Assembly (NCBI GenBank): GCA_965221165.1
Contig: CBDCRP010000002.1
Coordinates: 352,001-416,000, forward strand
DNA: 64,000 nt
Direction of reading: 5' to 3'
Source of the DNA: a bacterium
GTDB lineage: Bacteria > UBA8248
Positions 5,084-9,640 of this stretch are shown here, in pieces. A program made the position numbers and the translations under genes. Within the stretch, counting starts at the first letter, position 1, and each line of letters opens with the position of its first letter. Under the pieces are notes generated by a model. It did not search any database, was not told the DNA's origin, and was given only the letters and a program-made list of their open reading frames with translations.

Positions 5084-5356
5084 ATGAGCCGTGGGCTGGT
5101 GATGCACTCGAAAGACAATGTTGCCACCGTGCTGGAGGACATCGCCTCCGAGCAAAATGTGGAAATCGAAGGTGGTGGGGAAATTTTGATGATTTACGCG
5201 ACGGAAGCGATTCCTTTTGGCCACAAAATCGCACTGCGAAAGATATCCTCAAGCGGAAAAGTACTCAAATACGGCGAGGTCATCGGCACCGCCACGCAAA
5301 ACATATCCGCCGGTAGCCACGTTCACGTTCACAACATCAAGAGCACCAGAGGCTAG
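5084..5356 (+). CDS. UxaA-family dehydratase small (SAF domain) subunit
   Basis: DNVATV, IPFGHKIAL, KYGEVIG, HVHVHN. Confidence 0.9.
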   Translation: MSRGLVMHSKDNVATVLEDIASEQNVEIEGGGEILMIYATEAIPFGHKIALRKISSSGKVLKYGEVIGTATQNISAGSHVHVHNIKSTRG

Positions 5357-5358
5357 GC

Positions 5359-6537
5359 ATGCCCAGAAAAAGGGGCACCCCTACTTTTTGGGGCTACAGA
5401 AGGCCCGAGGGTCCTCCGGGCGGCCGGAATCATCTCGCCATTATCAGCGGGATGGACAATTCAAACCCTATTGTCCGTAGAATCGGCTCACTGGTACGAG
5501 ACGCCACCCCCGTCAACACATCGTTCGGACGCGCTCTGATGGGTGAGGACGAGGAACAGCATTGGCGGGTAATGGGGCACACCGCCGCGCACCCCAACGT
5601 AGGGGCAGCCATTATCGTGAGCTTAGAACCCAAGAGTGCCAACGCCATTGCGGAAGTAGCCACGAGAACATCCCCCTGGATGCCCATAGAGGCTGTGAAC
5701 ATCCAGGAAATCGGGGGCACGCTCAGCACCACCTCTCATGTCGTGGAACTCGCCACAAAACTTTCTGCCCACCTCGCATCCGCCAAGCGGGTTCGCTGTG
5801 AGTTGGGAGAACTCACCATCGGGGCCGAATGCGGGGGTTCTGATACGACCAGCGGCGTCATTTCGAACCCCGTGACGGGAATGGTCGCCGATAAGGTCGT
5901 AGAGGCGGGGGGATCGGTCATCTTCTCCGAGACACTGGAAATTGTGGGGGCCGAGCATCTTCTCGCCCGCCGGGCCGCAGACAGAAAAACGGCGCAGAGA
6001 ATCATCGCTTCCGCCAAAAGCGCCGTTGATTACGCCGAAAGCATCGGCGTCGACTTCATCGGCTCGAATCCGGCGCCCGATAACATCCGGGGCGGTCTTT
6101 CATCCATTGAGGAAAAAAGCCTGGGAGCCATCAAAAAAGCGGGCAGCCATCCCATCGTCGAGGTCGTTGGCGTGGGCGAGCGCCCCTCGAAAAAAGGCAC
6201 CATCTTCGCCGACGCTCCTTGCGCAGGCGTAGAAAACATATCTTCGCTCGCGGCCAGCGGAGCGCAAGCGATTATTTTCTCGACCGGCATCGGCAATCCG
6301 ATCGGTCATCCCATTTCCCCCACCATCAAGGTGACCGGAAATCCCCGAACCGCCCGGACGATGGCCGAGAACATCGATGTGGACATCAGCGGCGTCATGG
6401 AAGGGACGATGCGCATCGATGAAGCGAGGGATTTGCTCGAAAAAGAACTAATCGCGGTGATGAGTGGAAAACTCACGACATCAGAGCTTTTGGGAGAGAC
6501 CGAACTCACGGTCAGCCGGGCCGCATTAAGCCTCTAA
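5359..6537 (+). CDS. UxaA-family dehydratase/lyase large subunit (altronate dehydratase/SuyB-like)
   Basis: HPNVGA, ECGGSDTTSG, GGLSSIEEKSLGAIKKAG, FSTG.GNP. Confidence 0.88.
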   Translation: MPRKRGTPTFWGYRRPEGPPGGRNHLAIISGMDNSNPIVRRIGSLVRDATPVNTSFGRALMGEDEEQHWRVMGHTAAHPNVGAAIIVSLEPKSANAIAEVATRTSPWMPIEAVNIQEIGGTLSTTSHVVELATKLSAHLASAKRVRCELGELTIGAECGGSDTTSGVISNPVTGMVADKVVEAGGSVIFSETLEIVGAEHLLARRAADRKTAQRIIASAKSAVDYAESIGVDFIGSNPAPDNIRGGLSSIEEKSLGAIKKAGSHPIVEVVGVGERPSKKGTIFADAPCAGVENISSLAASGAQAIIFSTGIGNPIGHPISPTIKVTGNPRTARTMAENIDVDISGVMEGTMRIDEARDLLEKELIAVMSGKLTTSELLGETELTVSRAALSL

Positions 6538-6583: not shown

Positions 6584-7096
6584 TTAAAAACCCATCCCCA
6601 CGATGAGCCGATTCCAGGCGTTGATGAGCGCGATGGCGCCGAGAAGTTCCACTATCTGCGCTTCTGAATAGTGCGCCTTGAGCGCCTCAAAAGTCTCATC
6701 GGAAACACTCACCCCCTGTGTGCTTTCCTCACAAAGGCGCAGCGCCGCTTTTTCTGGATCATTGAAGAGGTCGCTCGAGGAACCCTCTTGCGCGGCTTTT
6801 GTCTTCTCATCACCCACCTTGTGCATCCTTGCCATGTTTGAATGCATGTTCGTGCAAAAATGGCACCCGTTGAGCACCGATGCGCGAATGTTCAGGATTT
6901 CCTTGAAACCTATGTCGATCTCTCCCGGGCCATCCGCCACCGTGGTCAAGCTCAATAAAGATCGCAAGAAATCCGGTTTATGGGCCAAGGCCTTCACCGG
7001 TGGAATCACGACGCCGAATTGTTTTTTCAAATTCTCCATGATGCGTTTTGCGGACGCTTCCGCCTGTTCGGGCTCTAACTGGGAAATCCGTGCCAT
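6584..7096 (-). CDS. Carboxymuconolactone decarboxylase/AhpD-like protein
   Basis: SVLNGCHFCTNMH (CxxC..H), INAWNR. Confidence 0.85.
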   Translation of the reverse strand: MARISQLEPEQAEASAKRIMENLKKQFGVVIPPVKALAHKPDFLRSLLSLTTVADGPGEIDIGFKEILNIRASVLNGCHFCTNMHSNMARMHKVGDEKTKAAQEGSSSDLFNDPEKAALRLCEESTQGVSVSDETFEALKAHYSEAQIVELLGAIALINAWNRLIVGMGF

Positions 7097-7330
7097 TCCA
7101 TGCTCCTTAGATTGATTCGTCGGGGTGGATGCTTGCGCACGAGAGATACGCTCATTCCACCGATATTTACGTCACCTCGAGGGTACCGGTCAATGAATAC
7201 TCCAAAACCACCCCGCATACCGCTATAAACTCTAATGAGCGGAAGCACAAAACATCTTCTTTTGTTAAACTATACTCCTGTGAATTTCCTGTTTTCTGCG
7301 GCATTCGCCTTAAACGAATGGATGAACCCT

Positions 7331-8158
7331 ATGGACAAGCAAATTTCTTTACGAGAAGCCGCTTCCCTCATCGAGGATGGAGATGCGATTAGTCCCGGCG
7401 GCACTCTTCTGCACAGGACTCCTGCCGCCCTCGTGCGCGAAATCGCGCGCGCAGGCACCCGGCGTCTAACGCTCATCAAGCCTTCCCCCGGCTATGACGC
7501 CGACCTCCTTTGCGCCGCAGGCGCCGTCGAGAGGGTCATCAGCGGTATCGTCACATTCGAGGCGGAATTCGGATTAGCGCCCCAATATCGAAAGGTGATT
7601 GAGAAAGGGTTGACCGGCCTCACCGAACACGCCTGAGCCAGCGTTCTCGCTGGGCTGCGGGCCGCAGCCTACGGCATCCCTTTTCAGCCCATTCGTGGAT
7701 TCACGGGGAGCGACATTCCGGAGCAAAGCGGTATTTTCACGATTGAAGACCCGTACACGAAAGAGGAACTCTACGCGATTCCCGCCCTCAAACCGGACTG
7801 GGCATTGATTCACGTTCAAAAATCAGACGCGCAGGGAAACGCCCAAATTCTGGGCAACCAGCAGTTTGACGTTGAAATGACGCGCGCGGCGCAAAAAGGG
7901 GTCATTCTCACAACCGAGAAAATCGTTGACCCCGAAGAACTCGCAGCGGAACCCGAGAGAACCACCATACCGGGTTTTCTCGTCAAAGCGGTCGTGGAAA
8001 CGCCGGGAGGGGCGTCTCCTTGCAGTTGCCATCCATACTACGGGGTCGATAAGGATGAAATGGGTCGTTACCTGGCCCTGACCCAAAGCAAGGATGGACT
8101 TGGGGAATATCTTGCCGGTACCGACCAGACACACACGCAAGACGCGTTGAGAAGATAG
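7331..8158 (+). CDS. Family I CoA-transferase-like alpha subunit with in-frame TGA (predicted selenocysteine at codon 102)
   Basis: ORFs 7235-7636 and 7805-8158 share a frame. After TGA 7634-7636 the frame continues without a stop as ASVLAGLRAAAYGIPFQP...DPYT...AIPALKPDWALIHVQKSD..GNA, which are family-typical motifs. Confidence 0.85.
7651..7671 (+). promoter_or_regulatory. Candidate bacterial SECIS hairpin
   Basis: TGGGCTGCG-GGC-CGCAGCCTA: 9-bp stem, G-starting loop, stem begins 15 nt after the UGA. Confidence 0.65.
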
Positions 8159-8160
8159 CG

Positions 8161-8913
8161 ATGGGCAATCGCCTGGCTTCGTTGCCTGAACACGTCATCC
8201 GCGCCGGAAACCAGATGGTCGTCACGCTGTCGCACCTCATCGAAGATGGTGACAAAGTGTTTCACGGGGTCAACTCTCCGCTTCCGATGGTTGCGATTTT
8301 TTTGGCCAAAAAACGACACGCGCCCAACTGCATGCTCATAGAAGTCGCGGGTTCCGTGGACCCGAAACCACGCTTCATGCCGAATAGCACGGCCGACCCC
8401 GAACTCTGCCACGGCGCGGCTTCAATGTTCTACAACCCGGACATGTACGATCTTTTTGCACGTGGAGAGATGGACCTCGCTTTTCTGGGCGCCGCCCAAC
8501 TCGATAAGCAAGGACGAGCCAACATGAGCTATATCGGCGACCCGTTTCACCCGAAAGTCAGGCTCCCCGGTGGAGGGGGAGGCTCCGTCATCATGCCCCA
8601 GGTGAAACGAACGGTTATTTGGCGAACGGTGCACGACAGGCGATTTCTCGTGCCGAGGGTCGATTTTTCGACGCAATCCGGAAATCTGAGCCACGTGGTG
8701 ACATCCATCGCCTTGTTTGAAAAAAAATCGACAGGGCTCGAACTCGCCAGCGTTCACGCGGGTCATTCGATGGATGAAGTGGTCGAGAAAACCGGATTTG
8801 ATTTGCATCGCCCGAACGTTGTCGCGCAAACGCCCCTGCCGAGCGCCGATGAACTAAGCGCTTTGGAGGAACTCGACCCGGATGGCGTGCGCTTTTCAGA
8901 ATTTCGTGTATAA
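8161..8913 (+). CDS. Family I CoA-transferase-like beta subunit (GctB/IpdB-like)
   Basis: FLGAAQLD..G.AN, RLPGGGG, HDRRF...VDF; starts 2 nt after the alpha-subunit stop. Confidence 0.88.
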   Translation: MGNRLASLPEHVIRAGNQMVVTLSHLIEDGDKVFHGVNSPLPMVAIFLAKKRHAPNCMLIEVAGSVDPKPRFMPNSTADPELCHGAASMFYNPDMYDLFARGEMDLAFLGAAQLDKQGRANMSYIGDPFHPKVRLPGGGGGSVIMPQVKRTVIWRTVHDRRFLVPRVDFSTQSGNLSHVVTSIALFEKKSTGLELASVHAGHSMDEVVEKTGFDLHRPNVVAQTPLPSADELSALEELDPDGVRFSEFRV

Positions 8914-8995: not shown

Positions 8996-9640
8996 TTGAT
9001 GAGCAGTGAATTGATGAATCGTTTGAAAAACTATTCTGCCTGCCAGGCGGCGGACGCCTTCGATAAATTAAATATCAGAGGCCACATGCCCGACATCATC
9101 CTGTTGTCCCCCGACCCGGATTACCGAATGGTGGGCGAGGCCCATACCGTTCGGATGGTTCCCGCCGGCGGCGGCGCTCTGCCCAAACGCGAGGCCCACC
9201 ATATCGACGCGGCGCCCGGGGGGAGCATCGTCGTCATCAGCATCCCCTCTGGGGTGACGACGGCCAACTGGGGCGGGATGATGAGCACGCGGGCGAAAAT
9301 GATGAACCTGGGCGGAGTCGTCCTGGACGGCAGAGCCAGGGATATCGAAGAACACCGCCAGATGGGATACCCCGTGTTCGCCAGAGGGGTGTCTGTTCAC
9401 GGCAGCGGCGGATATACGGTTCCCATCAGCGTGGGAGAACCGATCAATTGCGGGGGCGTCGCGGTAAGGCAGGGAGACGTCATTCTGGGAGACGTCAACG
9501 GTGTGGTCGTCATCCCCAGGGAAAGGCTCGAGGAAGTCATCGATAAAATGGATGAATTGGCGAAAATTGAAGAAAAAATCATCTCTGAGTTGGAAAAAGG
9601 CGCGAGCATCGGCGAGACGTTCGCCAAGTATCGAGGCTAG
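8996..9640 (+). CDS. RraA family / HMG-CHA aldolase-like protein
   Basis: ADAFD, WGGMMS, DGRARD, GDVILGDVNGVVVIP. Confidence 0.88.
   Translation: MMSSELMNRLKNYSACQAADAFDKLNIRGHMPDIILLSPDPDYRMVGEAHTVRMVPAGGGALPKREAHHIDAAPGGSIVVISIPSGVTTANWGGMMSTRAKMMNLGGVVLDGRARDIEEHRQMGYPVFARGVSVHGSGGYTVPISVGEPINCGGVAVRQGDVILGDVNGVVVIPRERLEEVIDKMDELAKIEEKIISELEKGASIGETFAKYRG

Follow-up and report, generated by a model that had tools for sequence, protein, structure and literature searches.

What does an in-frame TGA do inside the gene of a coenzyme A (CoA)-transferase-fold subunit, and what kind of enzyme does this gene encode? The question is raised by a locus in a 64,000-nucleotide stretch of a bacterial genome (GTDB lineage Bacteria; UBA8248; GenBank assembly GCA_965221165.1, contig CBDCRP010000002.1, positions 352,001 to 416,000 of the forward strand; hereafter the window), in which two adjacent genes, alpha and beta, match the Pfam family CoA_trans (PF01144) and the first of them is interrupted by a TGA. 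As judged by comparison among genomes, this TGA almost certainly encodes selenocysteine (Sec). The predicted Sec lies at the alignment column of a functional glutamate of the hydrolase subunit IpdA, and beta has lost the glutamate on which class I CoA transferases carry CoA. With moderate confidence, we favor a non-transferase enzyme of this fold that uses the Sec of alpha, or the Cys of its relatives, catalytically on a bound acyl-CoA-type substrate.

The in-frame TGA of alpha is conserved across phyla

Under translation table 11, the alpha frame ends at the TGA, and the gene is cut into an open reading frame (ORF) of 133 aa upstream and another of 117 aa downstream, though the same frame stays open onward to its stop. 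With TGA translated as U, positions 7235-8158 constitute a single open frame with one odd codon, U134 in that translation and U102 when counted from the MDKQ start (ATG 7322 and ATG 7331 both being start candidates). The residues around it read TEHAUASVLAGLRAAA, confirming the frame EHAUASVLAGLRAAA in which an earlier, sequence-only reading of the window had recognized a Sec-like TGA. Alpha matches CoA_trans with 79.4 bits (cut-off 23) and the match runs through the TGA; likewise, its homologues are ~265-285 aa long and cover both halves around this codon.

Cysteine occupies the Sec column in all 120 of the best full-length database homologues of alpha listed. The best of these is only 57% identical to alpha, whereas beta has 38 database matches at 77-94% identity, a gap that is explained if the close orthologues of alpha are cut at the TGA and miscalled. 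A six-frame search for alpha in 60 related genomes and in the window's own confirmed this expectation, and alpha matches interrupted by an in-frame TGA came from 29 genomes, namely the window's own, 20 of the 22 in its genus and 8 of the 14 in the family's other genera. The TGA was found at the identical codon in all 29 orthologous loci fetched (28 from related genomes and the window's own), and both halves of alpha are conserved at the protein level, down to 63% identity. In a species-genome collection, the same codon was TGA in loci labelled Thermodesulfobacteriota, Chloroflexota, Rokubacteria/Methylomirabilota and Burkholderiales/Betaproteobacteria, and two metagenome-assembled genomes (MAGs) under other labels grouped with the Burkholderiales sequences. 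We thus appear to be looking at a selenoprotein family that occurs under at least five phylum labels and is split by gene callers.

After genomes fetched twice had been dropped, the family set comprised 83 rows, 42 with Sec and 41 with Cys. In a quick maximum-likelihood tree, a single clade (SH-aLRT 99) held 41 Sec and 5 Cys of the 83 rows, and at least four changes between Sec and Cys were counted, three of them forced by starred branches; the tree comes from a short search and has several long branches, and is reliable in its coarse picture alone. The genome (3.69 Mb, 3 contigs) encodes the machinery for Sec insertion, with selB scoring 383.8, selA 564.2, selD 329.8 and tRNA-Sec 75.9 bits, each above its cut-off. 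Alpha therefore presents all four of the usual comparative signs of a bacterial selenoprotein, namely a conserved UGA, Cys homologues, a downstream stem-loop and selA/selB/selD/tRNA-Sec, and differs from other bacterial selenoproteins in that its hairpin lies within a protein motif, GLRAAA, that is also kept by the Cys forms.

These data bear on the simplest alternative, that the TGA merely ends a gene broken by nonsense mutation, pseudogenization or assembly error. Although table 11 does cut alpha in two, and its readthrough is deduced from comparison, this explanation is already contradicted by the recurrence of the same TGA in all 29 orthologous loci and across several phyla, by the conservation of both protein halves, and by the conserved hairpin and complete Sec machinery, leaving it a negligible chance. 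Alpha is, very probably, an intact gene whose UGA is decoded as Sec.

Some further observations concern selenoproteins in this group. The selD gene, outside the window (positions 975065-976027 of contig C2 in genome G000), has one in-frame TGA of its own, and so the selenophosphate synthetase of this genome is probably a selenoprotein too. Five loci of Nitrospinota relatives (L049, L052, L053, L075 and L089) hold a Cys-type alpha paralogue, ~50-55% identical, near the Sec-type genes on the same contig, the gene order being Sec-alpha, beta, Cys-alpha in L075 and beta then Cys-alpha in L089. The BSepDB report places Nitrospinota-labelled MAGs among the bacteria richest in selenoprotein genes, with 48-54 each (PMC13326102). 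If the window's genome belongs to that Nitrospinota group, its use of Sec here would be one case among many.

A hairpin downstream of the TGA is conserved specifically in the Sec forms

Decoding of the UGA would be directed by a hairpin resembling a selenocysteine insertion sequence (SECIS), located 15 nt downstream over the G-L-R-A-A-A codons (Table 1). Among 28 distinct sequences from 29 related loci, the synonymous sites of the hairpin codons are invariant while flanking codons vary, and the only two changes within the hairpin both give G-U pairs. RNAalifold analysis of 27 aligned Sec sequences from several phyla drew seven of the hairpin pairs, none of which is ever broken; several of them have changed on a single side, and one occurs as G-C, G-U and A-U. 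All eight pairs are present in 32 of the 42 distinct Sec sequences, seven in another 4, and four to six in the last 6, which on inspection are Burkholderiales-type forms with a hairpin 3 nt shorter and in another register. By comparison, none of the 43 distinct Cys sequences has all eight pairs. The hairpin is thus supported by conservation specific to Sec forms more than by covariation. A Cys form from a Nitrospinota MAG (L079, 55% identical) keeps most of the hairpin in its G-L-R-A-A-A codons, GGACUGCGUGCCGCAGCC, possibly left over from a change of Sec to Cys.

The Sec of alpha aligns with a functional glutamate of IpdA

To place the Sec column in a structural context, alpha and beta were aligned to PDB chains by phmmer. 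Alpha matched AibA (5MZW, E = 1.3e-31), IpdA (6CON/6COJ/6CO6, ~1e-28) and GctA (1POI, 6.7e-28). U102 aligned, without gaps and within a high-confidence block, to the Glu of 'remdE' in the IpdA chains 6co6_A and 6con_A, and to Ala in 6coj_A, the sole difference there from 6CO6; we take 6COJ to be the E105A variant of IpdA. Crowe et al. 2018 reportedly named this residue Glu105 of IpdA and took it as the catalytic base. The position of Sec opposite the catalytic Glu of IpdA, which the sequence-only reading had proposed, was hence recovered with PDB chains. AibA has Gly at this column and GctA has Gln. A further Glu, three residues before the Sec/Cys, is nearly invariant among alpha homologues (E-[HN]-[AS]-C). 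Because exchange between Sec and Cys strongly marks a residue as catalytic, the Sec/Cys pair indicates which residue does the work in a large, uncharacterised branch of the CoA-transferase superfamily.

The beta subunit lacks the CoA-carrying glutamate

Beta, which matches CoA_trans with 68.7 bits (cut-off 23), has variants of AibB as its best PDB matches (best E = 3.3e-34), followed by GctB, and most likely forms with alpha a heterodimer of the class I CoA-transferase fold. The segment APNCMLIEVAG, residues 54-64 of beta (8320-8352), contains no Glu at the canonical position, which is taken by Val62: this residue aligns to an AibB position that varies between C, V, A, S and N over PDB entries 5mzw-5n03, and a 'FEGG' paralogue from the same genome aligns its Glu on it. 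The varied position in AibB is Cys56B, standing in place of the catalytic Glu of glutaconate CoA-transferases (PMC7756340), and the same transferase Glu is given as Glu54-beta in glutaconate CoA-transferase, with Gly57-beta as its counterpart in IpdB (PMC5380842). In 120 beta homologues the canonical column contains V in 82, I in 37 and one gap, so that the loss of this Glu, noted before in the window's own beta, holds for 119 of 120. The Glu that had been seen one residue earlier is there as well (Glu61), but this column has E in only 63 of the 120 homologues, N in 36 and S in 18.

Might Glu61 nonetheless carry CoA, making the pair an ordinary class I CoA transferase with Sec as a bystander? 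A register shift of one residue is possible as far as sequence goes, and Glu is present at this column here and in those 63 homologues, yet in 54 of the 120 it is N or S. We paired the alpha and beta states locus by locus and found Sec alpha with beta residues 61-62 EV in 48 pairs (some genomes being counted twice), with EI in 2, and with NV, NI, SI, SV or AI in 14, and Cys alpha with NI in 31 pairs and with EV in 4. Outside the Nitrospinota clade, most Sec forms lack Glu61, and those of other phyla pair with NV, NI, SI, SV or AI; Glu61 is therefore no requirement of the family, and belongs to one clade rather than being a shifted catalytic Glu. In addition, curated NCBIfam transferase models were matched far below their cut-offs (pcaI/scoA, 38.9 vs 128.5 bits; pcaJ/scoB, 35.6 vs 315; acetate CoA-transferase, 26.1 vs 243.55), and a genuine transferase pair, with 'FEGG', lies elsewhere in the same genome. 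An ordinary transferase is accordingly very hard to reconcile with these data, and we consider it highly unlikely.

Another feature of the fold, the glycine loop, was kept: P136, G137, G138 and G140 are invariant among the beta homologues. By a hand count from the phmmer alignment, G139/G140 correspond to Ala133/Gly134 of AibB, and in a density functional theory (DFT) study the amide of this Gly134 touches the enolate oxygen (PMC7756340). Glu72 of AibB corresponds, again by hand count and less surely given adjacent gaps, to Ala78. The beta homologues have no invariant Cys.

The alpha column and the beta glutamate covary in the superfamily

With a natural Cys homologue as the query, a full HMMER scan collected 2671 superfamily representatives at E <= 1e-3, 251 of them at E <= 1e-30. 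In the best 150 of the 2671, the Sec column contained E in 65, C in 32, N in 13, G in 11, H in 6, a gap in 6, A in 4, S in 3, T in 2, Q in 2 and six singletons, and some short entries started right past the Sec position, like split gene calls. These 150 include ten natural alpha-beta fusions, of which two, with N in the alpha part, have 'FEAG' in the beta part, while the other eight (alpha E, C or T) lack the beta Glu. Within the window's genome, neither the Sec pair nor a paralogous Cys pair (C2:1219447-1221026) has this Glu, and 'FEGG' occurs in a third pair (C3:964612-966259), whose alpha column is His. The solved pairs combine Q with E (GctAB), E with G (IpdAB) and G with C (AibAB). In this small and partly related sample, then, the beta Glu is present only with alpha N, H or Q and absent with alpha E, C/Sec, G or T, with zero exceptions, in agreement with the earlier proposal that Sec/Cys in alpha covaries with loss of the Glu in beta.

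Taken together, Sec/Cys exchange and covariation sort the superfamily into transferases with the beta Glu, IpdA-like enzymes with an alpha Glu, enzymes with an alpha Cys/Sec, and AibAB-like enzymes, a four-way grouping from which functions can be predicted and assays targeted. Among these diverse GctA-like proteins, the IpdA column most often holds Glu (65 of the best 150), and IpdA-like alpha-Glu enzymes may be far more widespread than steroid degraders.

A non-transferase enzyme with a catalytic Sec or Cys is favored

With the beta Glu lost and Sec/Cys at the IpdA Glu column of alpha, the enzyme is most likely not a CoA transferase. GctAB (1POI) and other class I CoA transferases share with it the fold, PF01144, the two subunits and the glycine loop, but have the Glu54-beta that is absent here, and GctA differs at the Sec column. 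IpdAB, the hydrolase that cleaves the ring of COCHEA-CoA in steroid catabolism (6CO6, 6CO9, 6COJ, 6CON), likewise pairs an alpha and a beta subunit of this fold, its IpdB has no catalytic Glu either (Gly57-beta; PMC5380842), and a functional residue of IpdA occupies the alpha column that holds Sec here. It differs in having Glu rather than Sec/Cys at that column and Gly rather than Val/Ile in beta, and the match of beta to IpdB is weak (E = 2.8e-6). There were no steroid-catabolic genes among the annotated neighbors, where no targeted search for such genes was made.

In the enzyme that we propose, beta would have given up the CoA-carrying Glu (Val62) and retained the glycine loop, and an acyl-CoA-type substrate would be bound at the alpha/beta interface, as in IpdAB and AibAB. 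The Sec of alpha, or the Cys of most relatives, would then act from the IpdA catalytic-Glu column, either attacking a carbonyl or enoyl carbon as a nucleophile or shuttling a proton, possibly helped by the nearly invariant Glu three residues before it. The substrate is probably a thioester, as suggested by the conserved glycine loop and by CoA-ester genes near the pair in relatives.

As for the type of chemistry, covalent nucleophilic catalysis within this non-transferase picture, by attack on a keto or enoyl carbon, either cleaving a C-C bond in the manner of thiolase or IpdAB or hydrolyzing via an acyl-Se intermediate, is a tentative option at best. More speculative still, and rather doubtful, is a thiolase- or IpdAB-like C-C or C-S cleaver in which the alpha selenol attacks a carbonyl to form a covalent selenohemiketal or acyl-selenoester. 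Were this true, it would represent a non-redox, nucleophilic use of Sec in acyl-CoA metabolism, and alpha Cys/Sec would be a third catalytic solution beside the beta-Glu transferases and the alpha-Glu hydrolases.

A different role for the Sec is suggested by AibA/AibB, the 3-methylglutaconyl-CoA decarboxylase of Myxococcus xanthus (5MZW-5N03), which is a non-transferase member acting on a CoA ester, with its beta Glu replaced, and the best solved match of both our subunits (alpha E = 1.3e-31, beta E = 3.3e-34). By analogy, the pair might be a decarboxylase or double-bond isomerase in which Sec/Cys moves a proton on the enolate of a glutaconyl-type CoA ester, non-covalently. A DFT study supports Cys as the general acid in AibAB (PMC7756340), and enoyl-CoA hydratase/isomerase genes neighbor the pair in relatives. 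Against this, the relay residues of AibB are not kept, Cys56 at the canonical position being replaced by Val62 and the nearby Glu72 by Ala78 (the hand count with gaps nearby), and AibA has Gly where alpha has Sec. Moreover, a selenol, having a pKa near 5, serves poorly as a general acid at neutral pH, making the repeated exchange of Cys and Sec harder to explain. We regard such a proton shuttle as unlikely.

The sequence-only reading had also raised the possibility of a new selenium chemistry. Its premises stood, that is, the Sec, its column and the loss of the beta Glu, but the Sec stands in for a Cys that is invariant (120 of 120) in what is a large family of mostly Cys-containing members, and any special chemistry would therefore be the thiol/selenol chemistry of the whole family and not specific to selenium. 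While the fold and the existence of its non-transferase members are already known, the chemistry of this enzyme is probably still undescribed. We found neither a catalytic Cys/Sec in the IpdA column nor a selenoprotein in this fold in the searchable literature, which does not include the BSepDB family list and two selenoprotein papers by Haft, where the family may have been catalogued before; there is no dedicated NCBIfam model for the alpha/beta family. One paper returned by the literature search as a co-occurrence match (PMC5736913) proved unrelated.

Several points weigh against the enzyme as we picture it. Concerning the Sec, its insertion is deduced from comparative data, its putative active-site location comes from a single source, the sequence alignment to IpdA, and the catalytic role of IpdA Glu105 is itself a reported one, with the mutant chain 6COJ in addition. 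Concerning the hairpin, the 96 nt at 7625-7720 taken alone fold no better than shuffles (z = -0.56) and have a different hairpin as their minimum free energy structure, the consensus fold owes little to covariation (a term of -0.48, with a single compensatory pair), and no Rfam model matched the hairpin, the Rfam scan of the window giving a tRNA only. No CoA-activating enzyme adjoins the pair in the window, and the gene context changes markedly from clade to clade. The redox explanation considered below is favored by the fact that most known selenoproteins are redox enzymes. Finally, AibAB keeps its activity when the active-site Cys56B is mutated (PMC7756340), so that a conserved Cys in this fold is not automatically essential.

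Gene neighborhood of the alpha/beta pair

In the window, the order of genes is 2Fe-2S ferredoxin-like, SAF/GD_AH, a divergent AhpD-like gene, alpha, beta and RraA-like, the enzyme thus being encoded together with an RraA-like aldolase/decarboxylase in this organism (Table 1).

Table 1. Positions in the window of the alpha/beta pair, its sequence features and its neighbors
Feature	Positions	Strand	Remarks
Split UxaA-type dehydratase: SAF (90 aa) and GD_AH (392 aa)	5084-5356 and 5359-6537		
AhpD/CMD-family protein with CHFC (CxxC) motif	6584..7096	-	Divergent, next to alpha; possible redox partner
Alpha subunit gene, CoA-transferase fold	7322 or 7331..8158	+	Pfam CoA_trans match crosses the TGA; ~275 aa
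TGA predicted to be read as Sec, U102 (numbering from MDKQ at 7331)	7634..7636	+	In-frame; comparative evidence
SECIS-like hairpin GGGCUGCG-GGC-CGCAGCCU	7652..7670	+	8 pairs, GGC loop; starts 15 nt past the UGA, over G-L-R-A-A-A codons
Beta subunit gene, 250 aa	8161..8913	+	Begins 2 nt past the alpha stop; Pfam CoA_trans
Beta Glu61-Val62	8341..8346	+	Val62 at the canonical CoA-carrying Glu column; Glu61 clade-specific, non-conserved
Beta glycine loop PGGGGG, residues 136-141	8566..8583	+	G139/G140 aligned to AibB Ala133/Gly134
RraA-like aldolase/decarboxylase-family gene	8996..9640	+	Downstream of beta, same strand

Among 24 Sec loci of the Nitrospinota/Tectomicrobia type (L055-L078), an AhpD-like gene lies by alpha in 22 and an RraA-like gene follows beta in 21, the loci without one or the other including some cut by contig ends (L067 has only 12 bases upstream); the dehydratase pair adjoins alpha/beta in the nearer relatives only. 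Because these loci are close kin, their synteny is weak evidence of a functional link. The best NCBIfam match of the AhpD/CMD protein is a 'YciW-related (seleno)protein' (83 bits vs a cut-off of 310; it is a Cys form here), and the thiol-dependent debrominase Bmp8 is among its relatives in the PDB.

The pair might also be a redox selenoenzyme, in which the Sec/Cys would cycle between selenol and selenenylsulfide or selenenic acid and be recycled by the CxxC motif of the AhpD-like protein, the enzyme being a reductase or a reductive C-X cleaver of the glycine/proline reductase kind. Almost all characterized selenoproteins are oxidoreductases, and the divergent AhpD/CMD gene with its Bmp8 relative recurs in those 22 of 24 loci. 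A GrdB-like gene also lies ~4 kb upstream of alpha in one Thermodesulfobacteriota Sec locus. However, the 22 loci are the same close kin, and an AhpD-like gene was found in none of 21 Sec-clade loci outside Nitrospinota. Nor is there a second invariant Cys specific to the family, C265 of alpha being common to GctA and AibA and beta having none, and we know of no redox member or cofactor site in the CoA-transferase fold. A redox role is therefore improbable in our view, and the catalytic, non-transferase enzyme is retained as the preferred reading. The product of the GrdB-like gene (L084:532-2757, in a Thermodesulfobacteriota MAG) is 742 aa long and contains a glycine/sarcosine/betaine reductase component B domain.

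Within the Sec clade, the sister part has other genes around the pair (ORFs in high-GC loci were called with a GC3 filter). In L128, L133 and L134, CoA-transferase III, enoyl-CoA hydratase, alpha, beta and acyl-CoA ligase follow one another on one strand, and L109 has hydratase, alpha, beta and ligase without the CoA-transferase III. The order is IclR, alpha, beta, ligase and TctA/TctC in L084 and alpha, beta, CoA-transferase III, cysteine dioxygenase (CDO)-like cupin and hydratase in L127, while upstream of the pair in Rokubacteria there is a flavin amine oxidase. TctC receptors are the commonest neighbor (17 of 135 proteins scanned). No common pathway emerged across the clade contexts examined. 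The neighbors in the sister clade point to CoA-ester metabolism, and a separate CoA-activating enzyme beside the pair fits a role in processing, not making, a CoA ester. Around the Cys-paralogue locus of Nitrospinaceae, the neighbors (ScpA/B, EVE, ApbA, PfkB and Amidohydro_2) are little informative.

Other neighbors touch on sulfur. The dehydratase beside the pair is named 'UxaA family hydrolase' by the protein atlas, which says nothing more, and sulfolactate sulfo-lyase SuyAB has the same SAF + GD_AH architecture as this split dehydratase. Cupins like cysteine dioxygenase type I lie near alpha/beta in the Burkholderiales-type loci L126, L127 and L128, and TauD and luciferase-like genes are also among the neighbors in relatives. 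The SuyAB-like dehydratase, the CDO-like cupins, TauD and the luciferase-like genes together hint at a link to organosulfur metabolism.

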